A stretch of 64,000 bases of DNA from Longimicrobiales bacterium (GCA_965238005.1 OZ250165.1:704001-768000), one strand, 5' to 3'. Numbered from the stretch's first letter, positions 35,257 to 58,674 are shown. The notes: generated from the sequence alone by a model not told the origin. Numbers and translations: made by a program.

Positions 35257-35259
35257 GCC

Positions 35260-36444: not shown

Positions 36445-36637
36445 GTGGTTAATCCTACCTGTGTATCATATATCGACGGATACACCATGGTACAATACGG
36501 TACGTACCGGCACAAGAGGGAGCCTGTAAACACGGCTAGGATATGCCATATCACATTGTAATAACACGCTTTACGGAATACTATGGGACCGCAGGGGACG
36601 ATGTTCGCGATCATACTGCCGTACTTGTGGCAAAAGT
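36445..36637. other. att end of the int3 element
   Basis: Homologous to 53229-53420; core ACTT-GTGGCAA-AAGT at 36623-36637. Confidence 0.8.
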
Positions 36638-37198: not shown

Positions 37199-37286
37199 GG
37201 GAGCGACCCCAGGAGGGCGGGGGCAGGTGCGCAAACACACCTGGTCCCGAACCCGTACCAGGCCCTCGGACTGGGGGGTCGCTCCC
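37199..37286 (-). repeat. Structured non-coding module type 2, copy B
   Basis: Same 12-bp IR and inner motif as 30244, between the MIAHL gene and virD4. Confidence 0.85.
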
Positions 37287-37461: not shown

Positions 37462-37915
37462 TCACCGGTAGCGCGCTCCCGCGAGGCGCACCGTTTGCCA
37501 GGCGACGCCGCGGTGAATCGCCCCGCGGCCTGCCTGCCGGCGGGCCTGCTTCTCCAGCGCCACGCTGCGTTTCAGGGCGGCTTGCAGGCCTCCGAACTCC
37601 TCGAGGATCTGGATCGCGCCCTGAAGGATCGCCCGCTCGATCCGGGCAAGTTCCTCACGGATCCCGGCGTCGGACTCGCCGGGGCCGGACGCCTCAGCCC
37701 AGCCGCTCATCACGGCCAGGGCCCGGTCCATCTCCCGCGAAGTGCGGGCGACGGCGACGACCTCGACGGACCGGCCTTGGTTTTCGAGCGCGTGCCAGAG
37801 CCCGCGGTGCGCCGCTCCCCAGGAACGGAGCGCGGTCGAGGTGTCGTGTCCGGGATCGACGTAGACGAACACTGCACGGCCCGAGTCCAGTGCGACCGGC
37901 AGCTTGAGCGGGAAG
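37462..37915 (-). pseudogene. 3' half of the split MIAHL-family ICE gene
   Basis: FPLKLPVALDSGRAVFVYVDPGH..WGAAHRGLW..GGLQAALKRSVALEK. Confidence 0.9.
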
Positions 37916-38191
37916 CAGGGATCAATCTTCGCAAGTCCCGATGGGACAACGACTTGGCAGTACCTTGCGAGAGACGTGTATCACTGGGTGTGTGCGAAGA
38001 TCGTAAATCGTGTTACCCGTTGGGTTTAGGACAGAAACCCACGGACCACGGACCCACGGATGGGCGGCCTCGAGCGCAACAAACACGAGTCCAAGAAGCA
38101 GAGGGCCGGGAGAGGCCCCGTGGGGAAGACGGCGGTCGGCCCGAGGGCCTGGTACGGGCGCGGGGCCGTGCGCGTCTCCCTAAAGGCAGCC

Positions 38192-38204
38192 TAACTTATT
38201 GATA
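38192..38204 (-). promoter_or_regulatory. IHF binding site
   Basis: TATCAATAAGTTA matches the consensus WATCAANNNNTTR exactly. Confidence 0.6.
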
Positions 38205-38539
38205 TAGATGCATATTAGGATCTTCGCCATTTGATGATGCCCCCATAGCCCTGATGCGGTCCGTCGGGGCGAGCCGTGCCGTTGCCTCGCCGTGCCGGCC
38301 AATTGTCGTGTCAAGAGAACCGGAGGCCGGACCGGTGCGCAACGTGAGCCAGGCCGGAGTCACGGCCACGCCAGATCAGATCGAGATCCCGACCGACCGG
38401 TAGTCGCGCCCTATCTCCAGAGTGACGCCGCCCCCAGGGTCCCGGCCAACCGGCTCCCGAGGGCCAGCGCGTAGGCGAGTTTGGCATCGAGGCGGGTCCA
38501 CTCGCCAGCCTCGGACTCACGGACTCCAGGAAACCTGAT

Positions 38540-39015
38540 TCTACTGCCAGTCACGCTGGAGGCCGAGCGAGCCGTCTTCGTCAACGTCGACCCGGAGCAT
38601 CCGGCACAGTTGCTTCTCCTCGAGCTGCTTGCCAATCCATTGGAAAACACGAACGGACCGGTTTCCTCCACGGCACGTGTGCCGTGTCGAGAACCTCCAT
38701 GGTGCGGCCGCACAGTGGGACCCGGTGCTCGCGGTTCGCCTTCGTCTGCGAAGCCGGTCCACACGGTCCACACACCCTCGTTCCGATCGATCTCGTTCCA
38801 CTCCGCTCCAGGAATCTCGTCGCCGTCGGCACCAGGAACTCGAGTCCGCAATGGACCAACGTGCCCAAGGAGCAGGAGGGAGCGGAGAAAGCCGCCGGTC
38901 CGATGGCGGAGACGACCGCTCCTCGGTAGACCCGCGAGGGCAGGTACCGGCGCTCGATGCCGGGAGCCTCGAATGCGGCAACCTCCTCCGGTTCGGTCGG
39001 GAGCCACGGCAGCCG
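38540..39015. pseudogene. Scrambled remnants of a MIAHL-family gene and a P4-type integrase
   Basis: Plus strand LPVTLEAERAVFVNVDPEH (38540-38600); minus strand LEFLVPTATR..KANREHRVPL (38610-38850); minus strand LPWLPTEPEEVAAFEA..LPSRVYRGA (38905-39015). Confidence 0.75.
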
Positions 39016-39041
39016 TTAGCACCTACAAACTATTGGATCTC

Positions 39042-40901
39042 TCAGCTCACCGTGGAGATGCGCGTGCTTTCTGAAGTTGTCGAGTTGTAAGTGGCCGAGA
39101 GGCCCGCAACATGTACGACTGGTTTTCCCATTGCCTTCTCGATTAGGCAACTCAGTCGCCGTCGTCTGTCTTCGAGAAAGTCGTTGAACGCATCCGCCCG
39201 GAGGAGTTCCGGCGAGAGGGCGTGGCTCGCAAGCAGATCATTCATCGCAACGTCGTCCAGTGCCACCTGCTTCTCTGCTTGGATTCTCGGCAGGTATCGG
39301 GAGGGGGCGTCGCCACCAATCTTACGATTGGCCTTGTAGGAAATCTGCGTCTTGTTGAGGATGCTATCGTATTGACCTTGGTCAATGTCCTGCTGATCCG
39401 CGCACCATTTCTTGGGGAAGATGTGGTGGATATCCAATGCGATTTCGTTCGCATCTAGCTCCTTGATAGTGGCCTTCCAGAACCAATCTTTGGAGCCTTC
39501 CCGCAGAACTAGCACATTAATGCCTTTGTAAGCTGCGCTCAGGCGTGTGCGCAGGGTGTCGAAACGCTCCGGTTGGAAATTGGCGTCGCGCACCGTGCGC
39601 GGAAGTGCGTCCTCATCGTCGAACCAGGCGAGCAGTTCATCGTAGTCGTTAGCCATGCGGGTCTCCACTGCACCGCCATAGAGTTCTCCCAGCACTCCAG
39701 ACCAGAACCAGCGCGCTAGCTTGTCGTAGATCCGCGGCTCAAGCCAGCGGTCGCCCAAGCGCGTGAGCACCGCTGCCAACGGAATGACTTGGGTGCTGTA
39801 GGGCAGCTCACGCCGGTGGTAGAAGCACTCTTTTTGCAAGAACCGGGCGGCATTTAAAAACCCCGCCTCCAGCATGTCGGCCCATCGTTTCCAAGCGTCC
39901 AGTGGTAGCCTAAGGACGTCGGCACGCTTGCCGCTGACCGGACGCACCTGCTTCCCGGTCTTACCGGCCCGTAAGTCTGCCTTTCTCAACTCGTGCGTAT
40001 GCAGCAGACTGATTCCTTGGAGGAACTCCGTGGCCTGAATGCCACTGAGGAGAACGTGGCCCTCCAGTCGTTTCTTCCGTGACTCAGCCTTGCGCGCCCT
40101 GGAGCCGAACCAGTCGTCCCTCAGGTTATAGCCCTCCGCTGCGTAGCTAGCGGTGACCAGTTCGAATACGGTAAGCGGCTCCCCACCGGTATTGACCTTC
40201 TCGAAGACCAAGCAGACCGCTTCCTTGGTGGTCTCTTTCTCCAACTGGATTACCGGGATTTGATAGTTGCGGAAAGGCTTAAGAACTTGGTTCCGAAACG
40301 CCATGTAGATGCCAAGCTTATCCGGCACCACCTCGTACAACGTCGTCTCCCAATCGTCGGAGTCCATTATCTGACTGCAGGGGAAATAGAACTCCCGGCA
40401 TTCCAGCTCGGTCGTGGCCAGATCTAGCTTCACATCGCGGCCGAAGTTGGTGCGCAGTTGCCTATTCTCATCGACAGCTATCACCGCCTCGTCGAGCGCG
40501 TGAGGGGTATCCACAGCTTTCCTGATATCGAAGTAGTAGTGGCGCTTTATCCTTGTGCCCTTGGCAGTCCTAGTGCGTACCGGCTCGTCAAGTGAGATGG
40601 CTTGGGTCAGGGTCGTGAGACGCTGCTGTCCATCAAGGATCAGTCTTTCCGGCGCCCGGTCCTTAGGTATCCTGTCCTCCAATCCTTCCACCGGACGGGT
40701 CTGGAAGCGAATCTCGCCACCGGCTTTGAGCAGCATTACCGCGCCTATCGGGAACGATCGACCAATGCTGACGAGCAGATCGCGAATGTGGTCGTCGTCC
40801 CAGACCCAGCCACGCTGGAAGTCTGGCAACTGGATCTTTCCTTCCTTGATTTCTCCCAGAAGTTGGTTTAGCGAAGCTTTGGTGCTGTCGAAGGTCGTCA
40901 T
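39042..40901 (-). CDS. GmrSD-like type IV restriction protein (DUF262 plus HNH)
   Basis: LPDFQRGWVW, LDGQQRLTT, FEKVNTGG, DIHHIFP..N..N. Confidence 0.9.
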   Translation of the reverse strand: MTTFDSTKASLNQLLGEIKEGKIQLPDFQRGWVWDDDHIRDLLVSIGRSFPIGAVMLLKAGGEIRFQTRPVEGLEDRIPKDRAPERLILDGQQRLTTLTQAISLDEPVRTRTAKGTRIKRHYYFDIRKAVDTPHALDEAVIAVDENRQLRTNFGRDVKLDLATTELECREFYFPCSQIMDSDDWETTLYEVVPDKLGIYMAFRNQVLKPFRNYQIPVIQLEKETTKEAVCLVFEKVNTGGEPLTVFELVTASYAAEGYNLRDDWFGSRARKAESRKKRLEGHVLLSGIQATEFLQGISLLHTHELRKADLRAGKTGKQVRPVSGKRADVLRLPLDAWKRWADMLEAGFLNAARFLQKECFYHRRELPYSTQVIPLAAVLTRLGDRWLEPRIYDKLARWFWSGVLGELYGGAVETRMANDYDELLAWFDDEDALPRTVRDANFQPERFDTLRTRLSAAYKGINVLVLREGSKDWFWKATIKELDANEIALDIHHIFPKKWCADQQDIDQGQYDSILNKTQISYKANRKIGGDAPSRYLPRIQAEKQVALDDVAMNDLLASHALSPELLRADAFNDFLEDRRRRLSCLIEKAMGKPVVHVAGLSATYNSTTSESTRISTVS

Positions 40902-41217
40902 GCTGACATGTCCGTCTCGTCGAGTCTCTCGGTTGGCCAAGCGGAACGCGGTCGGTCGGGATTACCGATTCGGTCCGCGCGTGGATATGACTCCCGAATC
41001 TTGAACACTCCACCATTGTGAAGGTGACCTCCGGGAGCGGGTACTCGTGTGGTGAGCTTCCCAAGGCGCCGGTGGTCGACTCCGGACGGGATGCGATCCC
41101 CAACGAATCGTAACAGGGATCAGGACCGGAAGGGAGCCTTGGCGGTCCCACACCTGACGCCGCCCGCTGTAGCAACAATTGATACAGGTATTGCCGTAGG
41201 TAGTGGGTCAGTTTCAA

Positions 41218-42066
41218 TCAAACGAAATTCGGGGGCAGTAATTCCTCAATCTTCCAGACCCGATCCGTCAGACCGGCAGCCTTGGCCGGGGTCGTTTTGA
41301 TCCCACCCGCCTCCTTGGTCAGCGTCGTGTGTGCCTTGCAGAAATTATAGTACATGAAGTGAAGCGCCACGGCATACTGGTGGAACTCGACCGTCTTGCT
41401 GAAGGCATTCGTCAGGCGGGTGAACCGGCGGGAGTGCATCCGCAGCGTGAGGTTCGATCGCTCGACATGCGACGTGCAAGTGTCATTCAGGGCGGGGTTA
41501 CCCATAACGCGCTTCTTCTCGGACCCGAGGCATACGGGCGGGCTGTACCGGCGCTGATCTTCGGAGCTTTGGCCGTAGGCCTTCACCACCGTTCCGTAGT
41601 CTGCCCCACCCCACCCAAACGCTCGCTCTACGGCTCGCGGATAGACCCCGTGACCGTCAGTGGAGAGGTGGACTCGGCTCACTAGGCGGTCGGCCAGATC
41701 CTGCATGAACGGCAAGCCGGTCGCAGCTCCCCTGCATCCGACGCGGTAGGCGATCAAGAGCTTTGTGTCCCGGCAGAGCGCTGTCCACGTCCACACGTCT
41801 CCGCGACCCTGGCCCCTTTCTTCCTTTGGGATGTTGCGCTCTTTCGCCCCACAGAACGACCAGATTTCATCGCACTGTACGCGCTCGGACTCCACACCCC
41901 TTACGAGAGCGTCGTGCTGCTCCATGCAATACGCGCCCACGTTCTTGAGCAACCGAGAAACGGTATTCTTGGAAGTGCCGGTAAGGCGTGCGGTGGCCCG
42001 GATCGAATTGCCCTCGACCAGTGCTTTGAGGATCATGGCCCGCTTTTCGTCGCTCAGTTTGTTCAT
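41218..42066 (-). CDS. IS1-family-like DDE transposase
   Basis: HTH EGNSIRATARL; QCDEIWSF, STDG, TSHVERSNLTLR, RRFTRLTNAFSK. Confidence 0.9.
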   Translation of the reverse strand: MNKLSDEKRAMILKALVEGNSIRATARLTGTSKNTVSRLLKNVGAYCMEQHDALVRGVESERVQCDEIWSFCGAKERNIPKEERGQGRGDVWTWTALCRDTKLLIAYRVGCRGAATGLPFMQDLADRLVSRVHLSTDGHGVYPRAVERAFGWGGADYGTVVKAYGQSSEDQRRYSPPVCLGSEKKRVMGNPALNDTCTSHVERSNLTLRMHSRRFTRLTNAFSKTVEFHQYAVALHFMYYNFCKAHTTLTKEAGGIKTTPAKAAGLTDRVWKIEELLPPNFV

Positions 42067-42159
42067 CGGTAGCCCCTTTTGCTACCCCAATATATGCTTG
42101 ACCGCTCAAGTAGTCAAGCAATATAGTGGCTCACTTCTAGGTTCTGAGGTTACTATAGA

Positions 42160-42933
42160 ATGATGGATAACACCCTGACCCTGACCCTGGCCCTTGACGG
42201 GCAAGTAACCCTTGATGATTTCGCAAGGGCTATCAGCCGTTTTCACGGCATAGTTGTGGCATTATCTAGGGATATCCCCGGCACCGAAACGATTACCTGG
42301 GAAGTGTCAGACCTTCAGGTCGGAAGTGCTATTGCCGACGTGACGGGACATGGGCCAAGCTCCGATGTTGAGCTGGTTGTTCGAGAATACGAACGGCTGG
42401 GCGAGGAATTGGAAAGGCGCGGACCACTCAACTTCTCTCCCGCCGTCCAAGCGGAAGCAAGGGGCTTAGTGGAGCTCATTAACGGTCGCATTGAAGCTAT
42501 TCGCATGGAGACAGCGCACCAGGATCATTTAATCGGAGGCGGCGAACTACCCGAAGTCGGAGTACCTGAGGTTCTAGAGTTCCCACGTTCGGCCCTTGGG
42601 GCGATCCAGGGCACCATAGAGACCCTATCTCGCCGAGGGGGGCTGAAGTTCACCCTTTACGACTTGATGCACAAGCGAGCGATTTCCTGCCACCTCCCAC
42701 CGGGAAGCGAGGGCGTGATGAGGGACGCCTGGGGAAAGAATGCAACCGTACATGGTATCGTGCGGAGAGACCCTGCGACGGGGCGACCAACCTCCATCCG
42801 CGAAGTCTCCAAGGTGGAAACCGTTCCCGAAAGCGGGCCAGGAGATTGGCGACTGGCCGAGGGTGCCGCAGTTCGTCGCCCGGGCGACGAACTGTCCCCC
42901 GAAGATGCGATTCGGCTGATCCGGGATGCCTGA
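42160..42933 (+). CDS. Uncharacterised partner of the PIN toxin (putative large antitoxin)
   Basis: 257-aa ORF overlapping the PIN gene by 8 nt; beta-rich C-terminal half; tail LSPEDAIRLIRDA. Confidence 0.7.
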   Translation: MMDNTLTLTLALDGQVTLDDFARAISRFHGIVVALSRDIPGTETITWEVSDLQVGSAIADVTGHGPSSDVELVVREYERLGEELERRGPLNFSPAVQAEARGLVELINGRIEAIRMETAHQDHLIGGGELPEVGVPEVLEFPRSALGAIQGTIETLSRRGGLKFTLYDLMHKRAISCHLPPGSEGVMRDAWGKNATVHGIVRRDPATGRPTSIREVSKVETVPESGPGDWRLAEGAAVRRPGDELSPEDAIRLIRDA

Positions 42934-43402
42934 CAGCCCACAACGCATCTACTGGGATGCGTGTGTCTTCCTGTCGTTTATTGAGGGACACCCCGACCGC
43001 TCTAAGGCGATTCGGACTTGGCTAGAAAAGGCGGAAAAGGGGAAGGTCGTGATCGTGACTTCCACCCTTTCAATTGTGGAAGTCGCATTTGGCAAGCAGG
43101 AAAAAGATCGAGGCGCGCTGATCCCGGAGGAGGAAGCCAAGATCAACCACCTTTGGACGCCTGAATCGCCCGTGGCGCTGGCTGAGTTTCACACAAGCAT
43201 AGCGCTTGAGGCCCGACGTTTGATGCGGGATGCGATGGCCTCGGAAATTGGGCTGAAACCGGCAGATGCGATCCACCTGGCGACGTGCCGAAACTTGGGA
43301 ATTGATGAATTTCATACCTACGACGGGAAGCTTGGCGGGGCCGCTGGAATTTCCCAACTCACGATTACCGAGCCCTCTCTTGAGCAGGGAGAGTTATTCT
43401 AG
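42926..43402 (+). CDS. PIN-domain (VapC-like) ribonuclease
   Basis: IYWDACVF, TSTLSIVEV, KPADAIHLAT, TYD. Confidence 0.88.
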   Translation: MPDSPQRIYWDACVFLSFIEGHPDRSKAIRTWLEKAEKGKVVIVTSTLSIVEVAFGKQEKDRGALIPEEEAKINHLWTPESPVALAEFHTSIALEARRLMRDAMASEIGLKPADAIHLATCRNLGIDEFHTYDGKLGGAAGISQLTITEPSLEQGELF

Positions 43403-43653
43403 CCCTGCTTCTCTTTGCTCCACCTAGCCCTGGCTGCTTTCTGGGCGATCTCCCGCTTCCGCTCTGGCGAAAGCGCCTCGGCCCTCGCCTTACCACCCTT
43501 GAGGCCCCCGAGACGCCCCAGCGCGACCGCAGCGGGATTCTTCGCGGGTATTGTCTCGGGTTCATCTTCGGCGGTAGCTTGCTGGACTACATCGAATGCG
43601 ATGACGTTGGGGTCGTCTTCGTCGGGTCTTTTCTTGCTTGAGCGCTTGGGCAT
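43399..43653 (-). CDS. Small basic KGG-motif protein
   Basis: KNPAAVALGRLGGLKGGKARAEALSPERKREIAQKAARARW. Confidence 0.8.
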   Translation of the reverse strand: MPKRSSKKRPDEDDPNVIAFDVVQQATAEDEPETIPAKNPAAVALGRLGGLKGGKARAEALSPERKREIAQKAARARWSKEKQG

Positions 43654-43759
43654 ACCTGAAAGCTAGCGCGTAGGGGCCACCCGGTGTCAACCCCTTCGAC
43701 CCCCTCTCGGATTTCAAACTGACCCACTACCTTGCCGTACGCCATCTTGACACATGGCT

Positions 43760-44045
43760 ATTGCCGTCCGATCATCCACGGCTCGTCGTTCCAGGCGTTG
43801 AAGATCGGCCTGCCGCTGCCGGTCGCCCTCTCCAGCGCACGGCGGTTCGCTCCGCCCCGGATGGAGTTGGTCGCGACCAGGCCGACCCGCTTCGCGGCCG
43901 CCTGAGTCCGCTCTGGATATCGCCGCACACTTCCTTGAGCAACCGGACATCCCCCTGGAGAATGGCCTACTCGATCCGGGCGATCTCCAGCTGACCTCCG
44001 CGTCGAACTCCGAAGGGCGGGTTCTCGAGCCCAGTTGTCAAGCAT
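43760..44045 (-). pseudogene. Fused remnants of a MIAHL-family gene (43920-44045) and a restriction-methylase (43760-43905)
   Basis: DNA similarity to 29820-29940; AKRVGLVATNSIRGGANRRAL..AWNDEPW is typical of MmeI-like methylases. Confidence 0.65.
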
Positions 44046-44173
44046 CGTCCGTTGCCGATGCCGGGAGCGATGTCTTCACGGGACGGCACGCGTGGCGATT
44101 GTCTCGCAGTGAGGTATGCCGCAAGCGAGCGCGGGACATCGATGCCACGGCACGACCGAACAGTAGCGAGCCG

Positions 44174-47100
44174 CTACTGCGGCTTTCCACCGCCCAGGAT
44201 GTCATCCACATCGCGATCCCTCGCGCCAAGCACATCACGAAAACGAAGCCTCAGTTGCGCTGTGAGGCGCTTAAGACCAAGAGACTCGAGCACTGCCCGG
44301 AGATGGTCATCGGAGCCAGATTCGAACCCCTCATCTTGCGACAGCTGGCGTGCCATGAGCTGAAGCTCGCTCTGCGGAATCTCATTGAAGGTGCGGGGGC
44401 CACGCTCGCGAAGCACGGTTGCAGGCGTACCCGTGATGCGCACGATCGAGTAGACGAGGCCCCCGGTGCCGGACTCGTCCTCCTTGGCGACTCGACCTTT
44501 TCGAATGGCGTGCTGGAGCGCCCTGTTCATGGATCGCTTGAGTTCGCCACCCATTCGGGCGATGCCAATGCCACGCAGGTAGAGGTTGTAGGATCGCTTG
44601 GCTAGCATCGGACCCTCTGTATCGATGATGCGGCAAAGCCCTTCGGCAACCTGGGCGGGTGTGGAGTGCCGCGGGTCCGGGCCAGCTGGTCCCTCGAATG
44701 CGACGTAGGGTACCGCTCTAATTGGGACAGGCGTGACCGGGTCACGGTTTGTAGGCAGCGGCCGGTTCTCGGGATAGGAGGTCGGTTCCGGTTCCTCCTG
44801 GGGCTCGTCCATAGCCTCGGGGGCAGCCGGCTTCGGGTCAGTGCCGTGCGTGGGCGTTGGCGAGGCTTCGTCAGGGGAACGTGTAACCGTAGGTACCACC
44901 TCGATCAACTCAGGGGATGGCGGCTGACCATCCGAAGGCTTATCGAGATCGGCTTCCGTTCGCCTCTCCGGGCCTCTCGACTTCGGTCGCGGCGGGGCTG
45001 CGGCTGAGTCATCGATGCCGCCGGGCCGGATGCCGAGGCGATCGAGTTCTGCCCACACGGGCTCCATGGCCTTTTCGCGATCCCGGTAGAAGTCGCTACC
45101 CCGAATTCGGGCGAACTGCCAGCCCGCCCGCTCGAGATCGCGTTGACGCGCCACATCCTGCTCGTAGCGATCGGGGCCATGCCACTCGTCGCCATCACAC
45201 TCTACCGCCAGTCGCCCTTGCATGCCCTCGACGACCAGGTCGATCCGGTAGCGGTGATTCGCCGGGTCGCCCACACACACCTGAGTTCTCACGTGAAATC
45301 CGCGCTCGGTGACGCGCTGGTAGACATGCCGTTCGAACTTTGAGTCGAATCGCTGCTCTTCCGGATCGGTCCTCTTCCGCCCGGGATCGAGCATGTAGCT
45401 GAGGAGCGAATGACGCATGCACTTGTCGCTGAGCAAATCGAGCTCGGCCGTATGGAAGAGCCAGAGCTGGTCTTGGGCGCGGCTGACCGCAACGTTGAAA
45501 CGCTGTCGGGCCGCCTCGTTTGCGAGCACACCGATCCGGTGCTCTCCTGGAGCCGCGACCAAGCTCAGGAAGATCACGTTGCGCTCGTCGCCCTGGAACG
45601 CATAGGCATCGCCGCAAATGAGCCGCCGCTCCACAACCACCTCGGGATCGAGCGCCTGGAGAAGCATGTTCTCGATCAGCTTTGCCTGCGCCTCGCCCTG
45701 GAGACTGATCGCGCCCATGGTCTTGCCGGCGTAACGCGGGTCGTCTATGCAAGCGCAAATCTGCTCGACGATTGCCTCCGCTTCCGGCGGGTTCTGGGCG
45801 TGGTCGGCCTTTCCCCTGCGATATCCGTCAGGCACGTGCCGACGTACGAGTGGTTGAAGCCGACTGGCGGGGTAGGCACGCAGTGGATCGAGGGGCGTAC
45901 CGTTACTGGCGTAACAAAGGTCATTCGAGAACTGGATGATCTCGGGCATGCACCGAAAGTGCTCGCGTAGCACGATGTTCTGATTAAACCGGATCTTCGC
46001 GTTACCGTAGACGCTACTCTGCGGGTAGAGCGCGACCTTGTGCGGGACACCATCCAGAAAGTGCTGTTGCAGGGCAGCGACATCGGCATCGGGAATGCCC
46101 ACGCCCGCGGGGCTGATCTGCTGATCATCACCGACGACGATGATCTTCTTGGAGATATAGAAGAGAAACAGGCTCTCGATACCCAGCTGGCTGGCCTCAT
46201 CGACGATAACAAGGTCGTAGAGACCCGGCGAAGGGTCGATCATTTCGGCCACAAGATACCGCGGCATGATCCAAATCGGGATCGCCTTGCGGCAGTCATC
46301 CATGTAGTTGCGTGCCTCCCGCCTAAGACGTGCTATCCTTGCAGATTTCCCTGTGGCCTTGCCCATCGCGCGCACCGCCTCGCGCCAGCCTTTGAGCGCA
46401 TTGCGTTCGCGCGGGGAGAGGCGCTTGAAGAAGTCCTTCCAGGCCCGGAGGGAAGCAGCTTTTGCGACGCGTCCGCTCTTCGAAACCTCTGCCTCGTGAC
46501 GCCTTCGCCAGAGCTCCTGCTGGTAGTTGAAGTCGGACCGCTTCTTGAGCCAGCCGTCAGCCCACGCCCAGCGCCAGGCCTCCTCCCAATGGGAGAGCCG
46601 ATCATCCCAGACCGGCTCGTTGAGGCTTGCCTCGACTTCCTCCACCAAGCTAGGTGCAGCCAGCCTGATCGCGGTCTCGATTCGAGCGCGTTCCGACTGG
46701 GCCACCCGCGCCCGTTCGATCGCAACTACATGCTCGTGACATTGGCTGTAGGCTGTCACGTCTCGCGCGGCTATCGCCTCGAGGAGCGAGTCCACGACAG
46801 GGTGGACGTCATGCAGCCCGCGAAGTCGCGCCAGGGGCTGGCCGCATGCTGCGACTTGCCGTTCTGCCTCGTCCAGCTCCTCGTCGATGCCCGCGCCGAC
46901 GATGAGATCGACCCACCGCAGCGCTTCTCCATCGAGCCAGTTGGGCGTCGGGACCGGGGGGGACTTGCCGGACATGTTCTGGGCAGCGTGGGTACACGCG
47001 TCGCCGTATTCGAGTACATCCGCGAGGGCTGACACCTGCGGTTTCAGATCGAGGAGGCAGAATCTCCGGTCGGCCAGGGTATCAGTGACTCCTATGTCCT

Positions 47101-49462
47101 TCCAGAGGCTCACAAGATCTGCAAACGCGAACTCGAGGTCGAGATCATCGTATACCAAGTCCAGCTTCTGGACGTTGTCGGCGGGTTGTCCGTCGACCAG
47201 AACATCTTTCTTAAGATAGGTTCGTCCCTTGAGTGCTTTTGGCGTGACCAATCCAAGTAACTTCCACTTGCCACCGGCCTGGAGATGTTTGGCCGCGGCC
47301 GCCGCATCCGACCGCACTTTCCGAGGATCGAGCCCTTCGGGGCGGGTCACGACTCGATTGCCGAGACTACGCAACAGAGGCTCAATCTGCTCGATGCGCT
47401 GCCTGCTGAGCTTGAGCAGCGCACGCCACTTTGCGGTGCGACCTACGACCACCTCTCGAAGCGCTGTGCCCAACCACTCAGCCTCAACACCATGGAGAGC
47501 GCGCCGTCGCTCCTCGATGCTCCTGAGATCGTCGGCTAGATTATTTCTCTCGTCGGTCGACAAAGCGCGAATCGGCGAGAAGGCTGGGTGCGGTCGGAGC
47601 GCGTCCACCTGCTCGGTGCTGCGCGTTCGTGCTGTAGCCTCTTTCGAGACGATGCCCCCGAAGTCCGCCGGAGCAGTGAGAGTGGCACTGTCCGGGATCT
47701 GGAGTGTCGAGGCCGCGACCTCCTCGTCCGAGTACCGCCTGCGAATCTCCAGCCATCTGGCTGCCTCGGCATTCGAGATCGTCGGATGATTCGTCGCATC
47801 CCGTGCCAACCGGAGCCACCCAAAGATCTCGCGCTCGGCGGCGACCCGGGCTGCGATATTCGAGGCCGTGCCTTCGTATGTGCCATCGAGCAGCGGATGT
47901 GAGAGCGTCTCGTATTCGCGCAGGCTTCGGATCTCCGAGTCGATCCTGGCGAGACGCCTCCGGGCCTCGTCGATCTCACGATCGATCTCGACGATCCTGT
48001 CATCATATGAGCCCGGGGAGTATGAGGCTTGCCGGTTTGTGATTCCCTGCACGGCGGTGTTAAGCTCCGCGAATGCGTCTCCGCCGTGCCCAAGCAAGCT
48101 GACGCACAAGGGTTGGATTTCCTTAGGGAGCATGCGCTTGAGAACCTGGAGGGCGCGCCCCGTCTCCGCCGTGATGAGTACTCGCTTCCCCGTGGCGAGC
48201 AGGTGGCACATGAGGTTCGCGATGGTGTGGCTCTTGCCGGTGCCGGGTGGACCCTGAACCAGCACTCCTTGATTGCAGTCGATCGCATCGACGATACGCC
48301 GCTGCTCGCGGTTGGCCGGCAACGGGAAATAGGCCTCTGACGGTGACGGCGTGCTCCCACTATGCGTTCCATCGTGGCCATGGTGCCCCGAAGGCTTCCC
48401 ACCTCCATCTCCCCAGTCGTCATCAGTCAGCTCGCCCCAGCCGCGGGGCACTTCGCCTTCTTCGTCCTCAAGGTTCTGGATCAGTTTCTCGTAGATGCGG
48501 ACCATGCCAGTCTGGAGGCGTTTGCGAAGGATCAGTGCCGGCGCGAAGCTCATGACTGGGTCATTTCCAGTTGACGGCTTGGCGCTGAGTCCCTCGGACC
48601 AGACCGTGTCGGGGCTTAGTGCCCCCGCCCAGGTCTTGAGCGGAGCATGGATGAGCGACTTGTCCCAGATCGCGTCACCCACCTCCTCAAGCTGCGCTTC
48701 GACCACGTCATAGTTTGATCGATCAGGTCGGAGTTCGGCCTCGAGCATGTCGTCTTCGACACGCAGGTTCGCCCCTTCACCGGGGGCGCCTACGCGAATG
48801 ACGCCCCTGCCTGGGTCAAAGGTCAACTCGACCTGCCCGACCACCGCGTGCCGGCGAATCGGAATCGACTTATTACCGCTCTTAGCTCGCCAGTCCATCA
48901 GGCCTAGCCCGAGGACGACCTCGACGATCTCGCTCTGCTTTTGCAACTGCGAATAAAGACTGAAGAGCTTCGCATAGATGTTCTGCACCGCCTCGCGACG
49001 GCGATGGTCGGCTGCCCAGGCTTCCCACTTCGGCCGGAAGGCCCGATACGCCTCGACGACTTCGGGGTAGTCCTCCAGTGGTCGCTCGACGAGCGGCGGT
49101 GTCTCGCCCTCCTCCAGATCGAGTTCGGTATCTTCCTCGAGGATGCTCGGGCGCAGTGGCGTAATACTCGGAGTAGCCCTGCGGAGGACCTCTGCGTCGA
49201 CCCATTTCGCGATCATGTCGGGTGGCTCTGGCGGCCTCTCGAACTCCTGCTTGCGGACCTCGAGCCAGGGCTCTTCCAGATCGTAGTCGTCGGTCCAGGC
49301 ACCACTGTGGCAGTCCGCGTCTTGCGGCATCTCGTCGAACCAGAGCACAGAATCGTACTTGGCTACATCGCGAACGGTCGTACTGCGAAGACCAACGAAC
49401 TCTTTCAAGTACCGCGCGAGTCGCAGCGCGGGACTCTCGATGTTGTTACTGTCCGTGCTCAA
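44174..49462 (-). CDS. Large SF1 (DNA2/UPF1-like) helicase fused to a Vsr/DUF559-like nuclease and a wHTH-like tail
   Basis: QGPPGTGKSHTIAN, IVDEASQ, VGDDQQ, LREHFRC, FQGDER, RFNVAVSRA; FDSKFE..YRIDLVV..AVECDG..H..D..RQRDLE..GW; TTG start at 49462 inferred. Confidence 0.88.
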   Translation of the reverse strand: MSTDSNNIESPALRLARYLKEFVGLRSTTVRDVAKYDSVLWFDEMPQDADCHSGAWTDDYDLEEPWLEVRKQEFERPPEPPDMIAKWVDAEVLRRATPSITPLRPSILEEDTELDLEEGETPPLVERPLEDYPEVVEAYRAFRPKWEAWAADHRRREAVQNIYAKLFSLYSQLQKQSEIVEVVLGLGLMDWRAKSGNKSIPIRRHAVVGQVELTFDPGRGVIRVGAPGEGANLRVEDDMLEAELRPDRSNYDVVEAQLEEVGDAIWDKSLIHAPLKTWAGALSPDTVWSEGLSAKPSTGNDPVMSFAPALILRKRLQTGMVRIYEKLIQNLEDEEGEVPRGWGELTDDDWGDGGGKPSGHHGHDGTHSGSTPSPSEAYFPLPANREQRRIVDAIDCNQGVLVQGPPGTGKSHTIANLMCHLLATGKRVLITAETGRALQVLKRMLPKEIQPLCVSLLGHGGDAFAELNTAVQGITNRQASYSPGSYDDRIVEIDREIDEARRRLARIDSEIRSLREYETLSHPLLDGTYEGTASNIAARVAAEREIFGWLRLARDATNHPTISNAEAARWLEIRRRYSDEEVAASTLQIPDSATLTAPADFGGIVSKEATARTRSTEQVDALRPHPAFSPIRALSTDERNNLADDLRSIEERRRALHGVEAEWLGTALREVVVGRTAKWRALLKLSRQRIEQIEPLLRSLGNRVVTRPEGLDPRKVRSDAAAAAKHLQAGGKWKLLGLVTPKALKGRTYLKKDVLVDGQPADNVQKLDLVYDDLDLEFAFADLVSLWKDIGVTDTLADRRFCLLDLKPQVSALADVLEYGDACTHAAQNMSGKSPPVPTPNWLDGEALRWVDLIVGAGIDEELDEAERQVAACGQPLARLRGLHDVHPVVDSLLEAIAARDVTAYSQCHEHVVAIERARVAQSERARIETAIRLAAPSLVEEVEASLNEPVWDDRLSHWEEAWRWAWADGWLKKRSDFNYQQELWRRRHEAEVSKSGRVAKAASLRAWKDFFKRLSPRERNALKGWREAVRAMGKATGKSARIARLRREARNYMDDCRKAIPIWIMPRYLVAEMIDPSPGLYDLVIVDEASQLGIESLFLFYISKKIIVVGDDQQISPAGVGIPDADVAALQQHFLDGVPHKVALYPQSSVYGNAKIRFNQNIVLREHFRCMPEIIQFSNDLCYASNGTPLDPLRAYPASRLQPLVRRHVPDGYRRGKADHAQNPPEAEAIVEQICACIDDPRYAGKTMGAISLQGEAQAKLIENMLLQALDPEVVVERRLICGDAYAFQGDERNVIFLSLVAAPGEHRIGVLANEAARQRFNVAVSRAQDQLWLFHTAELDLLSDKCMRHSLLSYMLDPGRKRTDPEEQRFDSKFERHVYQRVTERGFHVRTQVCVGDPANHRYRIDLVVEGMQGRLAVECDGDEWHGPDRYEQDVARQRDLERAGWQFARIRGSDFYRDREKAMEPVWAELDRLGIRPGGIDDSAAAPPRPKSRGPERRTEADLDKPSDGQPPSPELIEVVPTVTRSPDEASPTPTHGTDPKPAAPEAMDEPQEEPEPTSYPENRPLPTNRDPVTPVPIRAVPYVAFEGPAGPDPRHSTPAQVAEGLCRIIDTEGPMLAKRSYNLYLRGIGIARMGGELKRSMNRALQHAIRKGRVAKEDESGTGGLVYSIVRITGTPATVLRERGPRTFNEIPQSELQLMARQLSQDEGFESGSDDHLRAVLESLGLKRLTAQLRLRFRDVLGARDRDVDDILGGGKPQ

Positions 49463-49844
49463 GCTGCGGCTCCGTAGACCTGATGCTGATGGATCTAGCT
49501 CTAGTGGTAGTGAGTGTCCCCGCCCATCCCGGTTTCGCTCTGCAGCTGAACCACCATAGCGTGAAGGGGCGGAGAGCTCATCTGAGGGTACGGTGGAACT
49601 GGAGGCCGGGGTACCATCTATCGATGGCCGAACACATTCCGTGCCAGATTCTGACCAAAATCTAATACACTTGACTGGAGGAGGCATCGGGGGGGCTCGC
49701 GACTTGGCTGATCTCCCGTTGGAGCGTGGGGCCGGGGCTGGAATCCGACCAAAGGCAGCCAGCGGCAGCGCTGATGCCGACAGGGGTTGGTGCCGCGCGC
49801 GCGAGTAACCGCTCTTGGGACGTCGTCTGGTTGGCCCATCGGTA

Positions 49845-49941
49845 CACCGACCTGTTCGGGCGCCGACACCGGGCCATGGACGACCGGGCAGCCTACTTGG
49901 CCGGTGAGCGTCGAGACCCGGAGGCCGGTCCGGTTCGTTGA
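49845..49941 (+). pseudogene. C-terminal remnant of a P4-type integrase
   Basis: TDLFGRRHRAMDDRAAYLAGERRDPEAGPVR* resembles the int3/int4 tails. Confidence 0.75.
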
Positions 49942-50783
49942 TCCGCCGCGCTCCCGGCGGCGTTCGCCGTTATTCGGTCACTCAGTTCGTCGAGGAACCC
50001 GGACAGGGTCAGGCCGAATGCACCAGCGAACCTGGTCGCCGCATCGACAGTCAGGCGCACTTCCTTTTTCTCCAATCGCCGCACATGCCTCTCTGATAGC
50101 CCCGGAATCTCTGTCTGCTTCAGCCGCCGATCATTTCTCATGTCAAGTAGGACCAGTGACATTTTCTCCATCTGGTACCGGCGAATTTCCACATCAGCCA
50201 GATACATGGGATCCACGGCCTGTAGCATCTGAGACGCACCCATATGTACATTCTGGTCAGGCCAATACAAATAGGAACCGGCCGAATCAATCACGAACTG
50301 GCTGAGCACTGCTGGCTCAAACCCTCTTACTTTCGGCAGTTGACTGATCGGAAACTTCCGTGCGCTCATGTCTCCAAGGACGGCAACGAGAGACTCCTCA
50401 ATGACATATGCGTCGAGGATGCCCTCCCACGGAGCCGGTCTCGTAAGCGCGATGACCAGACGTTTCACAACCGAAGGATCCCGGCACACTTGCAGCCGCT
50501 GATCCGGCTTATGAAGTCGAAGTGTCGAGGCGAGTCGAAGTATCGCCTGCTCCGGCACGTCTAAGACAACCAGGTAGCGTGTCTCCGTATCCACCCACTT
50601 CGGCAACCTGACTCGCTCCGGACCCATTAGCTCACTTGCTTGAGCCACGACCAGGCTCTGCTCTGTTCCAGTGTGGGGCGTCGTAGATAGCTGTCTCGCC
50701 AGAGAGCGAAACTCGGCGTCGGGCAAGCAATCTTCCACCGTCCCGCAAAAGGCAATGTGGCTGAATGGATTTGCGTCACTCAT
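49893..50783 (-). CDS. Extended DUF2442-like plus XRE-HTH protein (putative antitoxin/regulator)
   Basis: ILDAYV..LVAVLGD..FPISQLP..GSYLYWPD; LKQTEIPGLSERHVRRLE; ATGA coupling to the DUF4160 gene. Confidence 0.7.
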   Translation of the reverse strand: MSDANPFSHIAFCGTVEDCLPDAEFRSLARQLSTTPHTGTEQSLVVAQASELMGPERVRLPKWVDTETRYLVVLDVPEQAILRLASTLRLHKPDQRLQVCRDPSVVKRLVIALTRPAPWEGILDAYVIEESLVAVLGDMSARKFPISQLPKVRGFEPAVLSQFVIDSAGSYLYWPDQNVHMGASQMLQAVDPMYLADVEIRRYQMEKMSLVLLDMRNDRRLKQTEIPGLSERHVRRLEKKEVRLTVDAATRFAGAFGLTLSGFLDELSDRITANAAGSAADQRTGPASGSRRSPAK

Positions 50784-51037
50784 TCGCTCTGACTCCGCTC
50801 CCATTCTGCGAACAATTCCGCGCGGTGCGCAGCGGCCAGCTCCAAGATTTCCCTCACCTTGCTCGTGGAAACGTGTCTCACTTCAAACTTCACGTCATAC
50901 TGCGGAGGCTCCTGTAGGAAGTACACACGAATCTCCCACGCGTCCACGACTCCTGCGTGAAAGTGCGGCGGTCCGTGGTCACCAGTATGAAACCAAAATC
51001 GACACCCAGTTAGTTCAAACGCCTGAAGCAGCCCCAA
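50780..51037 (-). CDS. DUF4160-family protein (putative toxin)
   Basis: GCRFWFHTGDHGPPHFHA..ELFAEW. Confidence 0.8.
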   Translation of the reverse strand: MGLLQAFELTGCRFWFHTGDHGPPHFHAGVVDAWEIRVYFLQEPPQYDVKFEVRHVSTSKVREILELAAAHRAELFAEWERSQSE

Positions 51038-51065
51038 GAGCTACCTCCAGGTGAACGCGACAGCT

Positions 51066-51293
51066 TCACCCTTCCGGTGGGTAGGAATCGCGGCCATATG
51101 TGTTCTTCTCCCGAATTTTCCCATCACGTCCATGGATCAACAGCTCAGACCGTTGATTCTTCGCGATGGAGCGCGCCTTCTTGATGGCTTCCTGTTGCGT
51201 GTCAAATACTTTTGTTGCTTTCCGACTACCTGCACCCTTGACGGCCCATCCATCCTTGGCTGGGACAACGTGCTGGTTACGCTTCTTGGCCAT
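51066..51293 (-). CDS. DUF2188-family protein
   Basis: QHVVP..GWAVKG..TQQEAI..AR..IHGRDGKIRE..YG.D.YPP. Confidence 0.9.
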   Translation of the reverse strand: MAKKRNQHVVPAKDGWAVKGAGSRKATKVFDTQQEAIKKARSIAKNQRSELLIHGRDGKIREKNTYGRDSYPPEG

Positions 51294-51709
51294 GTGGTCT
51301 CCCTCCTCTACGCCTTATGCCGGACACGCAAATAGAGTAACCGCTATATTATGTCCGATCAAGGCATCAGAGGGCCTGCTGGGTCACCATCGTGCGGACC
51401 TCCGCACGTGTCTCACAGTGGAAAGTCGCTCTTGCAGCCTCATTCAAGACTGCTACCTCGGTTCGCAGCTCGTGTCGGCCAGAAACTCTGGCCACTGCTC
51501 GCCTGCTTCGCCATGTAGCGCCTCGACCCAGCTCCCCGGAGGGTGGTCTTGAAGGCCGACCGAGGAAGGTCCATGCCGATCAGGAGGCGCACTTCAGACA
51601 CTGAGGCGCATGTGCACCGGAGGGCTGTTTCCGGATGTGGTTGGTGTGACTTAAGTTACGGGATACCAGCACGAGCGGCCGGCCGTCTCTGATGGTCTCG
51701 GGGCAAAAC

Positions 51710-51801
51710 GGGAGCGACCCCCGATCTCGGCATGCCTCGATCGGCATCGGGGAGGGACGGCATGTGCACGCCATGCCACCCTCCCCGACGGGGTCGCTCC
51801 C
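51710..51801 (+). repeat. Structured non-coding module type 2, copy C
   Basis: GGGAGCGACCCC...GGGGTCGCTCCC; the next ~70 nt resemble 30334-30404. Confidence 0.8.
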
Positions 51802-51952
51802 GATCCATCAGTCCCTTACGGGAAGGCCACCGAGCGCCGCTGAGAGCGCGGCGGATCAACGGGCCGATCCGGCGATCAGCCGTCAGCGCACCGGCAGGGG
51901 GGCGGGGGGCGAGCCCCCGCCCGCGAGCTCCGCCGCAGTGCGGGCGTCCTTC

Positions 51953-52040
51953 GGGATCGAAGGGGCGGAGCCCCTCGCCAGCCCCTTTGTGGGTACAAAG
52001 GGTATGCTGGCTCATGACAGGTAACGGGTCATGAGCCAGC
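51953..52040 (+). repeat. Structured non-coding module type 1, copy 4
   Basis: GGGGCGGAGCCCC, CCCTTTGTGGGTACAAAGGG, and perfect GCTGGCTCATGAC-N9-GTCATGAGCCAGC (52006-52040). Confidence 0.9.
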
Positions 52041-52043
52041 GCC

Positions 52044-53228
52044 TCAGCGGACCGGTTTGGCCTCCGGTTCTCGACGCTCGCCGACGAGATACGCGCCCCA
52101 AGCCTCCATGACCTCGCGCCTCCGGTCTAGCAGGTCGGAACGGGCGTAGGCGGCCTCGACCTTGTTCTTCACGACATGGGCCAGCGCCGCTTCGGCCACC
52201 TCGCGCGCCACGCCCGTCTCCGAGCACCAGTCGCGGAACGAGGACCTCATCCCGTGGGGCGTTCCCTCGATGGAGAGACACCGGAGCAGGCCGCTGAACA
52301 TCGAGGCGTTGATTCTTCCTCCCTTCGCGCCCCGGAACACGAGCCCGCCGCCGTCGTGGCGCTTCCGGGCTTCCTCAAGGATCTCCAAGGCCCGCCTCGA
52401 CAGGGGAACTCGGTGCTCGCGCTTCGCCTTCATGCGGCTGGCGGGAATGGTCCAGACATCGTGCTCGATCTCATCCCACGTCGCGCCCCGGACCTCGTTC
52501 GAGCGTGTCGCGGTCAGGACCATGAACTCGAGCGCCAGCCGGACACCGGCATGGGATCCCGAGTCGCGGACCTCGGCCAGCGCCGCCGACACCTCGCCAT
52601 GCGGGAGCGCCTTGTGATGTCTGGTGGCGTTGCCGTTGCGCGGCAGCGCGGCGGCGATGGCGTCCCCCGCCGGGTTGTCCGGCCGGTAGCCCTTCGCGAC
52701 GGCCCACTTCATCACCGCGCCGATCCGCTGGTGCACGGCCCTCGCGGTCGCGGGCTTGCTTGACCAGATGGGCTGTAGGATCGCGAGCACGTCGGCCGTC
52801 GCGACCTCGCTCACGCGTTTGCGGCCGATGCGCGGATGGGCGTAGTCCCTCAGCGTCTGCCGCCACTGTCCGGCGATGCAGGAAGGGCTCTTCCAGGTCG
52901 GCGAATGGATCGCGATCACCTTCTCGACGGCCGCCTCGAAGGTGGGAACCCCCACGGCTCTCGGGTCGTGGCCCCAATGGAGCGCGCGCCTGTTCTCAAG
53001 CGCCTTCTCCCTCGCCTCCTTGAGCGTCACGACCGGATACGAGCCCAGTCCGAGATTGGTGGGCTTCCCTCCCGCTCGAACGCGCTGGCCCCAGGACTTG
53101 GAGACGCGCCCGGACTTCATTCGGTGGACGCGGAGGTACAGCCCGAGTCCGCCGCGCCCCCCGTCGCCGTAGCGTCCCGGCGTCGTCACCCGTGCCACGA
53201 AGGCAGCCGTAAGCGGTCGTTTACGCAT
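52044..53228 (-). CDS. P4-type tyrosine integrase (int4)
   Basis: Intact RSNEVR, HGMR, LAH and AAY motifs. Confidence 0.95.
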   Translation of the reverse strand: MRKRPLTAAFVARVTTPGRYGDGGRGGLGLYLRVHRMKSGRVSKSWGQRVRAGGKPTNLGLGSYPVVTLKEAREKALENRRALHWGHDPRAVGVPTFEAAVEKVIAIHSPTWKSPSCIAGQWRQTLRDYAHPRIGRKRVSEVATADVLAILQPIWSSKPATARAVHQRIGAVMKWAVAKGYRPDNPAGDAIAAALPRNGNATRHHKALPHGEVSAALAEVRDSGSHAGVRLALEFMVLTATRSNEVRGATWDEIEHDVWTIPASRMKAKREHRVPLSRRALEILEEARKRHDGGGLVFRGAKGGRINASMFSGLLRCLSIEGTPHGMRSSFRDWCSETGVAREVAEAALAHVVKNKVEAAYARSDLLDRRREVMEAWGAYLVGERREPEAKPVR

Positions 53229-53404
53229 GGAGTGTGTCCTACTTGTGTATCACATTCTGACGGATACACCATGGTACAACACGGTACGACTCGGCACAAG
53301 AGGGAGCCTGCGAACACGGCCAAGACACGCCGTATCATGTTGTAATCAAGTATCTTGTGGAATCCTACGGGACAGCCTGAGACGATGTGCACGATCCTAC
53401 TGCG

Positions 53405-53887
53405 TTACTTGAGCGGGAAGTAACGCCGCGTGTTCCCGGCGGCTCCCCGGTAGAGCCGGCTGGGCAGGTGCCGGCGCTCGATGTCGAGCGCCTCGAACGC
53501 ACGGACTTTCTCTTTCTCGGTCGGGAGCCACGGCAAGCCGGGGTGTTCGAGTACGTAGTCGAGTGAGAGGAGGCGCCGCAGGAGCACTTCCTCCGAACCG
53601 GTCCGGCGGTGGCGGATGTCCTCGGCGCCTAGCGCCCGGTAGATCCTGCGTCCGAAGATCCGGCAGACCTTCCGCCGCTCGAGTGTGTCCTCGGCCGCGA
53701 GCCCCCTCTCGAGCAGGGCCCGGACGAACCGAAGCGCCTGCCAGCGATCGATCCGGAGATAGGCGGAGATCTGGGCGCGGGTGAACACGCCGCTGTGCAG
53801 ACAGGCCAGCGCGATCCACTCGGCCTGGCGTCCCGTCCAACCGAACGGCTCGAGGGCCTGTTCGCGTCCCTGCAGATGCGCGATCAC
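53405..53887 (-). pseudogene. 5' half of the split MIAHL-family ICE gene
   Basis: MIAHLQGREQALEPFGW..RRYFPLK*; stop created by the element end; GTGA overlap with virB8. Confidence 0.9.
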
Positions 53888-54552
53888 CTGGGCGGCTCCG
53901 TGACCAGGACACGGTCGGCCTGGAGGTAGGTGATGAGGATGCCCATCGGGTTGTAGACGACGAGCTCGGAGGGGATCACGGTGAGGAAGTTGAACCGGAG
54001 CGTGATCGACCAGCGCTCCCTCAGGGTCTCCTGCCCCTGCCTGAGGTGGACCAGGTCGAAGTCGGCGGTCGCGCCGTGCGGCGCCTCCGGTGCGGGGTGG
54101 ATGCGGAGCACGACCTGCTCGACCTGGAGCTCGGTGTCGGCGGTGCCAGCCGCCATGGCGGCGACCTCGGCGCCGTCACGCGTGAACGCCGCGTTCGCCA
54201 ACTCGGTCGAGAGGAAGCGGAGGCTACGGGTCCAGTGCTCCTCGACCGTCGCCTGGCGCCTGGAGTAGAAGTCGGAGATGAACCGGTTCAGGAAATACTT
54301 GGTCGTGGGATCGAGCGGATCCGCCTGCGCCGTTGCGGCCTCGTAGGCCACGGCCTCGGCGCGGCCGACCTCGTCGACCCGCACGACGATGGGCCTGGGC
54401 GGCTCGACGGTCGCGACCCGGAGCAGGAGCACGCCGAGCGCGAGGCACGCTCCTCCGAGGATCATCGCCAGCGTCCGGAGCTTCCGGTTCGCCTCGACGG
54501 TCTCACCCCAGATTTCCGCGTACTCGCGGCCGGCATCGTGTTCTCGGTTCAT
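53884..54552 (-). CDS. virB8: VirB8/TrbF-like protein
   Basis: Single TM segment, PIVVRVDEVG, YNPMGILIT; GAAGGAG RBS. Confidence 0.85.
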   Translation of the reverse strand: MNREHDAGREYAEIWGETVEANRKLRTLAMILGGACLALGVLLLRVATVEPPRPIVVRVDEVGRAEAVAYEAATAQADPLDPTTKYFLNRFISDFYSRRQATVEEHWTRSLRFLSTELANAAFTRDGAEVAAMAAGTADTELQVEQVVLRIHPAPEAPHGATADFDLVHLRQGQETLRERWSITLRFNFLTVIPSELVVYNPMGILITYLQADRVLVTEPPR

Positions 54553-54563
54553 GGATGTCTCCT

Positions 54564-55574: not shown

Positions 55575-55592
55575 GACAGTCGCTCCCGGGGC

Positions 55593-58668: not shown

Positions 58669-58674
58669 GGCGTA

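Follow-up and report, generated by a model that had tools for sequence, protein, structure and literature searches.

A predicted site-specific island with defence-like cargo in a decayed integrative and conjugative element of a Longimicrobiales bacterium

The DNA analysed here, called the window throughout, is a stretch of 64,000 nucleotides from a Longimicrobiales bacterium (GCA_965238005.1, OZ250165.1:704001-768000). It has a G+C content of 64.5% and spans positions 704001-768000 of a genome assembled as a single contig of 4.84 Mb. Between positions 37916 and 53407 lies an island that, with one copy of a short core repeat, amounts to 15.5 kb and separates the two halves of a gene, here named X, in the transfer region of an integrative and conjugative element (ICE). 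We read this DNA as an integrative island that entered X at the core, carries variable cargo resembling defence genes and would spread as a hitcher on ICEs, and we read the locus itself as decayed and not as a working switch. We assign this reading a probability of roughly 0.78. A preliminary description of the same DNA had proposed more, namely a satellite element whose excision restores X and which could couple its own departure to transfer of the ICE.

The island is flanked by an exact 13-bp direct repeat, CTTGAGCGGGAAG, which interrupts X as follows.

37903..37915: left core copy (attL crossover region); exact repeat, with island-side sequence from 37916
53408..53420: right core copy (attR crossover region); exact repeat, followed on the minus strand by an island-derived TAA
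53405..53887, minus strand: N-terminal half of X, 160 codons plus TAA, from the translation
37462..37902, minus strand: C-terminal half of X, 146 codons plus stop, from the translation

Read on the minus strand from 53887 to 53408, the N-half ends in ..RRYFPLK and meets the TAA of the island in the very next triplet (53407-53405), and the C-half, from 37902 to 37465, begins with LPVALDSG... The two halves are in frame and give 306 amino acids, a figure obtained by summing their lengths (160 and 146) and not from a joined sequence. Both are colinear with an intact X paralogue of 314 amino acids at 29134-30075, in which the corresponding stretch reads ..RRFFPLG LPVALD... The repeat, the reading frame across the halves, their colinearity with the paralogue and the stop directly after the core had all been noted in the preliminary description, and each was borne out. 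The core sits in the most conserved DNA stretch of X (..RRYFPLK LPVAL..), the rest of the gene being variable, and in the compact ICE family of Longimicrobiales (Gemmatimonadota) to which X belongs its place is between virB8 and the gene for the type IV coupling protein (T4CP). Only three exact copies of the 13-bp core are present in the 4.84-Mb genome, and the third, at genome position 693492 on the minus strand, is a further junction between an island end and X. No tRNA gene that might have been the target was found within the window.

The empty site is preserved in relatives. In five of five clade V loci (L023-L027, from two other genomes) the flanks of the window directly abut, with an overlap of 13 bp in four loci and of 12-13 bp in L025. 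Identity across these loci is 94-96% on the side of the X C-half and the T4CP gene and 89-92% on the side of the type IV secretion system (T4SS), and in L023 the exact core lies within an intact X of 310 amino acids.

Each end of the island carries an arm, and the right arm adjoins an integrase gene.

52044..53228, minus strand: Int-B, a P4-type tyrosine integrase of 394 amino acids; Pfam Arm-DNA-bind_3, Phage_int_M and Phage_integrase all above cut-off, PHROG integrase
53229..53407: integrase-side arm (attP arm), with GTGTATCAC at 53245; homologous arms at 36445-36627 (78%) and in loci L047, L048 and L049
37916..38100: conserved left arm, with GTGTATCAC at 37976; three copies in the genome itself

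The motif GTGTATCAC occurs exactly twice in the window, once per arm, in keeping with the arm-like sites previously reported at both ends, and it is kept in the arms of related islands. Of the 151 genomes of the bacterial family, 12 contain the left arm (135-190 bp), at 24 places in all, and they represent 8 of its 81 genera. Relatives of Int-B at 90-91% adjoin split X genes in two other genomes, G001 and G094. At locus L049 of G001 the two halves of a single X gene are separated by an island of 10.3 kb. That island encodes an integrase 90% identical to Int-B and has both arms in common with the present one; its cargo is unrelated and includes a DNA methylase. In G094 a 91% relative adjoins an X N-half, in G082 an 87% relative lies inside the T4CP gene, and in G002 two X genes are cut at the same codon by an integrase-side arm. 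Independent insertions at the X site, with other cargo, are thus represented by L047, L048 and L049 and by c693 in the same genome as the window.

Eighteen left-arm junctions were read in other genomes, six of them in X at the core, seven in the T4CP gene and five elsewhere. The seven in the T4CP gene share one fixed site, ending in GTGGCAGAAG, and the other five sites likewise end in GAAG. Compared in this way, the 15.5 kb is best understood as a site-specific island of a family with conserved ends and changing cargo, in which Int-B would carry out the exchange between attP and attB.

The two halves of X in the window do not share one ancestry, and here the preliminary description, which took them to be parts of a single gene, is not supported; halves closer to different genes than to one were what it had itself named as a refutation. 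Trees of the two halves were built from 27 unsplit X genes of five genomes, one of them frameshifted, and were concordant save for one gene. The window N-half is sister to clade I (85-87%, against 71-74% to clade V) and the C-half nests among clade V genes of other genomes (91-97%, against 53-56% to clade I). The nearest relative of the N-half, P0126, matches it at 95% and has a C-half only 59% like that of the window; the nearest relatives of the C-half (97-98%) have N-halves 70-73% like the window's. Related ICEs were to be searched for X unsplit, and at the level of the empty site they do have it, but among 225 family proteins no unsplit gene matched both halves, the best value for the weaker half being 76%. 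This divergence is limited to X; in the adjacent virB8 DNA, identity is 87-97% whichever clade is compared. As a candidate for the lost partner of the window N-half we considered the orphan C-half at genome position 693505, and rejected it because the C-half of P0126 is only 56% like this orphan.

A hybrid gene of this kind could have arisen if two ICE copies, each already occupied by an island in X, recombined, either homologously or between attL and attR by the integrase, and thereby joined foreign halves; the 15.5 kb would in that case be a composite. We regard this as possible. Besides the contrasting ancestry of the halves, it is favoured by a relic of another junction inside the island itself and by an orphan junction of left arm and C-half 48 kb away in the same genome. 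The relic is located as follows.

38544..39012: relic of an older junction, consisting of an X C-fragment (plus strand), an integrase fragment (minus strand) and an X N-fragment (minus strand), from repeats, self-BLAST and matches in the genome itself

Potential recombination partners are numerous, the genome having 8 full X copies and several orphan halves in addition to 35 matches to P4-type integrases, at least 21 of them near full length. It also has 13 AlpA-type genes and only 3 TrbC pilin genes. Assigning the N-fragment of the relic (38913-39015) to a clade proved uninformative, as it matches several clades at 84-87%.

Two observations count against recombination of two occupied copies. 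On the T4SS side, the flank resembles all clades to the same degree and is of no help in placing the right side. Moreover, intact hybrid X genes exist, and an allele of that kind could have received the island in one event. In the intact X at L027:870-1799 (genome G005) the N-half belongs to clade V (95-97%) and the C-half to clade IV (97%), the change occurring within about 20 nt that include the core, and P0133 combines an N-half 87% like that of the window with a C-half 97% like the orphan C-half at c693. Because such intact recombinants exist, insertion of the island into X is not disproved by the hybrid halves. They also hint that exchange at the core may shuffle X modules between ICEs.

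The ICE around the island is incomplete. Its parts in the window, and those of two further islands, are listed below; the T4CP comparison used as query the copy of 507 residues at genome position 870688.

53884..62232, minus strand: ICE transfer operon with genes for AlpA-like, TrbC/VirB2, VirB3, VirB4, CagX/VirB9, TrbI/VirB10, TrbL/VirB6 and VirB8 proteins (Pfam); 89-92% overall (87-99% per 150-nt bin) to related ICEs
36627..37163, minus strand: N-terminal part of the T4CP gene (Y), 179-181 codons including Walker A; the translation matches residues 2-181 only of the 507-residue copy
35122..36627, minus strand: island remnant A, consisting of the integrase Int-A (35260-36444) and an arm (36445-36627); 88% DNA identity to 51923-53411
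918-2666: GmrSD gene of a third island, both domains
4728-5885: P4-type integrase gene of the third island, 56% to Int-B

Int-A and Int-B share 349 of 394 residues (89%), and the DNA homology of the two regions extends as far as the junctions, at 36627 and 53411. The T4CP gene, 300 bp downstream of X, is broken, relative to intact copies, at the site of the seven T4CP junctions of other genomes, about 1.3 kb from the X site. The other end of this second island is missing, and a search of the genome for left arms found no copy near remnant A. On the plus strand, at a distance of 30-38 kb, the remainder of the ICE occupies window coordinates -2607..11701, where it matches the ICE of G005 at 92-95% and contains in order T4CP residues ~228-507, a VirB11-like gene, an ArdC-like gene, two small genes and the integrase of the ICE itself. 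It is interrupted near T4CP residue 507 by the third island, which covers window positions 1-6041 and about 2.6 kb before the window; the VirB11-like and ArdC-like genes and the ICE integrase occupy 6041-11701.

These facts bear on whether ICE induction could trigger precise excision of the island, restore X and so couple excision to ICE transfer at this locus. In favour of such coupling, the halves of X are in frame, Int-B is an intact open reading frame (ORF) with all its domains, and the upstream T4SS operon, well kept relative to related ICEs, starts with an AlpA-type excisionase/regulator gene whose product could act on a P4-type integrase. The intact X recombined at the core in L027 indicates that rejoined hybrids can persist, and the same hypothesis has been published for integrative and mobilizable elements (IMEs) inside traG of Tn5252-type ICEs (PMC5704250). 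Excision of the 15.5 kb alone could not, however, restore transfer, because T4CP is interrupted near codon 181 and the rest of the gene lies elsewhere. Sequencing data comprised 12 runs in 6 studies, available as contigs only, and the four runs compared over 36300-54600 yielded no joint that would mark excision, a result that speaks neither for nor against it given that contigs cannot show rare events. The one long joint, from 37869 to 53762, is in a single contig of a single run and has 25 nt on its shorter side; we do not accept it as an excision product, since the joint is imprecise and fits the intact X of a relative.

Since the X halves are hybrid, the T4CP gene is cut, the remainder of the ICE is 30-38 kb off on the other strand and bears a third island, and the island holds an IS1-family transposon as well as the old junction relic, the locus is not a transfer switch in this genome, and we consider a functioning one highly improbable. 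What survives of the preliminary description is a site-specific island without transfer genes of its own, set in an ICE gene whose site is uninterrupted in relatives; the switch at this locus does not. We take the locus to be decayed, a graveyard of ICE pieces and islands.

Apart from the integrase and arms, the island carries the following genes.

39042..40940, minus strand: GmrSD/DUF262-type protein of 632 amino acids; Pfam GmrSD_N 2.5e-32, PADLOC PDC-M55C and HEC-05, SspE-like N-domain
41199..43731: IS1-family transposon with passenger genes; DDE_Tnp_IS1 and PIN (Pfam), inverted ends, TTGCCGTA duplication
41218-42066, minus strand: IS1-family transposase (Pfam DDE_Tnp_IS1)
42926-43402, plus strand: PIN gene (Pfam), a passenger of the transposon
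44174..49687, minus strand: superfamily 1 helicase with an MTES_1575/DUF559-type nuclease, 1837 amino acids (Pfam); PADLOC PDC-S37 3.3e-71, MkoC
inside 49893-50804, minus strand: DUF2442 (Pfam, weak match)
50780-51037, minus strand: DUF4160 (Pfam)
51066-51293, minus strand: DUF2188 (Pfam; PHROG 3220)

This inventory agrees with the cargo of the preliminary description, all of which was recovered, and the cargo looks like anti-phage defence. In the first protein the DUF262 N-domain of GmrSD type IV restriction enzymes scores 113 bits against a cut-off of 33.2, and Pfam gives no match to a C-terminal nuclease domain of the DUF1524/HNH kind. The helicase-nuclease resembles the ProA and Hhe anti-phage helicase-nucleases in domain make-up only, as judged by its scores against the NCBIfam models (ProA-like, 7.7e-69, 232.5 bits against a cut-off of 1500; Hhe-like, 133.8 bits against 2000). 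The transposon is bounded by 20-nt inverted repeats that are 95% complementary, with an 8-bp target duplication, TTGCCGTA, on each side, and has three passenger ORFs, one of 257 amino acids, the PIN gene and one of 84 amino acids. The PIN gene was brought into the island by the transposon. Neither this transposon, nor the second integrase Int-A, nor the junction relic at 38544-39012 had been noted in the preliminary description. The point of transposon insertion lies inside an apparent split small ORF (40666-41217 and 43717-44045). No relaxase, T4SS or excisionase families were found among the island ORFs by Pfam, NCBIfam or PHROGs, which agrees with the earlier statement that the element has no conjugation genes or obvious excisionase. 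By the same searches the island lacks the relaxase of its own that a strict definition of IMEs calls for.

A structured element found between X and T4CP may connect the island with its ICE. It is about 90 nt long, is closed by GGGAGCGACCCC and GGGGTCGCTCCC, and was found after X in 75 of 80 loci, located 176-190 bp after the X stop and, where T4CP is present, 35-36 bp before the T4CP start. The closing stem has 11 bp; at its three outer pairs the counts of double compensatory changes across 39 sequences are 3, 4 and 8, those of broken pairs 0, 0 and 1. Three copies lie in the window.

51710..51801, plus strand: island copy, a candidate origin of transfer (oriT), 246 bp from the Int-B stop
37199..37286, minus strand: copy at the ICE position, with the X stop 179 bp upstream and the T4CP start 36 bp downstream
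30244-30333: third copy, after the X paralogue at 29134

Two further P4-type integrases in the genome also have a copy of the element, at 197-247 bp. Rfam reported no family at gathering score for 51500-52100, and its one permissive match, mir-702 (E 0.14), is far below cut-off. The third copy belongs to an orphan locus (29134-30447) where no T4SS precedes the intact X paralogue and no coupling-protein gene follows; downstream of this paralogue come the structured element and then, at 30382-30443, a 60-nt relic derived from the 3' end of an integrase gene.

With such an element the island would hitch a ride on the ICE, being either carried along in cis or, by way of its own copy, mobilised in trans, and the AlpA-like protein of the ICE may stand in for the directionality factor that the island is missing. 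The opposite relationship, in which the islands disable X and T4CP and so fix ICE and island in the chromosome or favour the host, seems to us improbable. It would suit the nature of the two recurrent targets, both of them DNA-processing genes, and the state of the genome, where orphaned or interrupted copies of X and T4CP are many and only three T4SS pilin genes remain; whether such elements are hitchhikers or pirates has also been asked in PMC5704250. An island that carries a copy of the structured element of the ICE fits mobilisation better, however, and the conservation of the core may merely mean a reliable landing site.

The protein encoded by X is itself uncharacterised. Its relatives number over 3000, none of which bears a name or a Pfam domain, and NCBIfam returned no family for X. 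A profile search of the PDB gave only weak, unrelated matches, the best (E 0.0036) to a stretch of plastid pTAC3, and 30 of the 30 ESM Atlas clusters nearest to X were without a common Pfam family. Structural models of X reached a predicted local distance difference test score (pLDDT) of 72-73, and Foldseek searches with both models returned nothing at E <= 0.001. The N-domain aligns with winged-helix regulators (Z 8.4, root-mean-square deviation 3.1, 89 residues) and the C-domain with SdaI (Z 7.7, root-mean-square deviation 3.6, 119 residues). Other matches of the C-domain are NucS (Z 7.0) and PaqCI and BspD6I (Z 6.7), and its best full-length matches are mostly restriction-type nucleases. 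All these scores fall in a range where a match may be due to chance. From these models a winged helix in the N-domain and a restriction-endonuclease-like fold in the C-domain are borderline assignments for X.

Relaxases of the MOBC or replication-relaxation type are modelled by Pfam as Replic_Relax. X has no sequence match to this family in Pfam, NCBIfam or PDB profiles. Because Pfam finds no classical relaxase in the ICE core, X is nevertheless a candidate for a MOBC-like DNA-processing protein. A broader scheme can be drawn from this, and we hold it to be doubtful. Integrase-only defence islands without relaxase would, in Gemmatimonadota, land in a MOBC-like X and in two T4CP sites, carry an element like the oriT of the ICE and need the AlpA-type protein of the ICE; induction of the ICE would free the island, repair the interrupted genes and mobilise both, and exchange at the core would reshuffle X modules.

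Several points weigh against the reading of the 15.5 kb as an ICE-hitching island inserted at the core. Given the hybrid flanks, the two copies of the repeat need not derive from one integration event. Pfam, NCBIfam and PHROGs find no excisionase encoded in the island, and in the four runs compared no contig joins 37902 to 53421, although contigs cannot show rare excision. The defence labels are based on domain matches, and the helicase-nuclease falls far below the NCBIfam cut-offs. The structured element is a possible oriT, but a terminator, an RNA element or part of the attachment site of another island would also fit. For X, the structural resemblances are borderline, with Z at 7.7-8.4 and Foldseek E >= 0.012, and at E <= 0.01 Pfam assigns no family to the intact paralogue or to either half, save for a weak match to TetR_C_33 below cut-off.

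The surroundings contain other mobile and defence-related genes. In the genome as a whole, ICE genes and integrases cluster at 0.66-0.89 Mb and 2.71-2.84 Mb, two regions that look like accretion zones of ICE debris. Window positions 12784-27320 hold two Mutator-family transposases, a DDE_Tnp_1 transposase and an AAA protein with McrBC, and an MmeI-type enzyme is truncated within its methylase domain at about 27320. At 30524-33543 a NucS_C-domain protein that matches the PADLOC candidate PDC-S11 adjoins a trypsin-like protease with a collagen repeat. The protease gene is bracketed by a 29-nt inverted repeat (31664-31692 and 33515-33543, 93%), and a 39-nt near-copy of one repeat arm is found at 13061-13099.

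Elements that interrupt a gene at a short core and restore its frame upon excision are well known from phage regulatory switches, the sigK skin element and the nifD elements. In those systems programmed excision rejoins a single gene of known function, whereas here the halves are hybrid and the pathway is broken. Int-B shares its architecture with the integrases of P4/CP4-57-type islands, which have the same arm-binding, central and catalytic domains; AlpA-type genes are found in the same genome, one of them heading the ICE operon and none in the island. Classical islands of this type insert at tRNA or tmRNA genes, which stay intact. Unlike them, the present family truncates protein-coding genes of ICEs.

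In their parts the present islands resemble the mobilizable genomic islands of SXT/R391 ICEs. They also resemble the hitchers called iOriTs. The latter are islands that carry an oriT and lack relaxase and mating pore, with defence genes enriched near oriT (Ares-Arroyo et al. 2026, bioRxiv 10.64898/2026.01.13.699239). Like them, the present islands have an integrase, defence genes and a short sequence in common with a putative helper ICE, and no relaxase or mating-pair formation genes. They differ in that the iOriT abstract makes no mention of landing inside the transfer genes of the helper, and in that the oriT proposed here is a candidate only.

Among 8 of the 56 records matched by one literature search on ICEs or mobile elements in sponge Gemmatimonadota, no published description of these elements was found. 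The nearest precedent comes from Firmicutes, where IMEs occupy fixed sites inside the traG/VirD4, Maff2-like and SNF2-like genes of Tn5252-superfamily ICEs (Guedon et al. 2017, PMC5704250). The same article relays the proposal that ICE induction triggers excision of the IME and restores the conjugation module, so that islands inside ICE transfer genes, and excision that restores transfer, had already been put forward. In both cases the islands use fixed internal sites in ICE transfer genes, up to several per ICE, with two sites in the coupling-protein gene. The Firmicutes IMEs, as described there, use serine recombinases and carry mostly replication and mobilisation genes, whereas the present islands have a P4-type tyrosine integrase with arm sites, defence-like cargo, no relaxase and uncultured Gemmatimonadota hosts. 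New are the phylum, the tyrosine integrase and the island copy of the covarying structure that ICEs have between X and T4CP. For the window itself the message is the smaller one of ICE pieces and islands in a graveyard. If the family behaves as proposed, X is likely to be the missing DNA-processing protein of these ICEs, nesting inside ICE transfer genes would extend to an uncultured phylum and to tyrosine integrases, and it would be linked to oriT-only hitchers. The family would also supply defined sequences (an integrase, the conserved arms, the 90-nt covarying element and two attB sites) for studying how nested elements coordinate their excision with a helper ICE.

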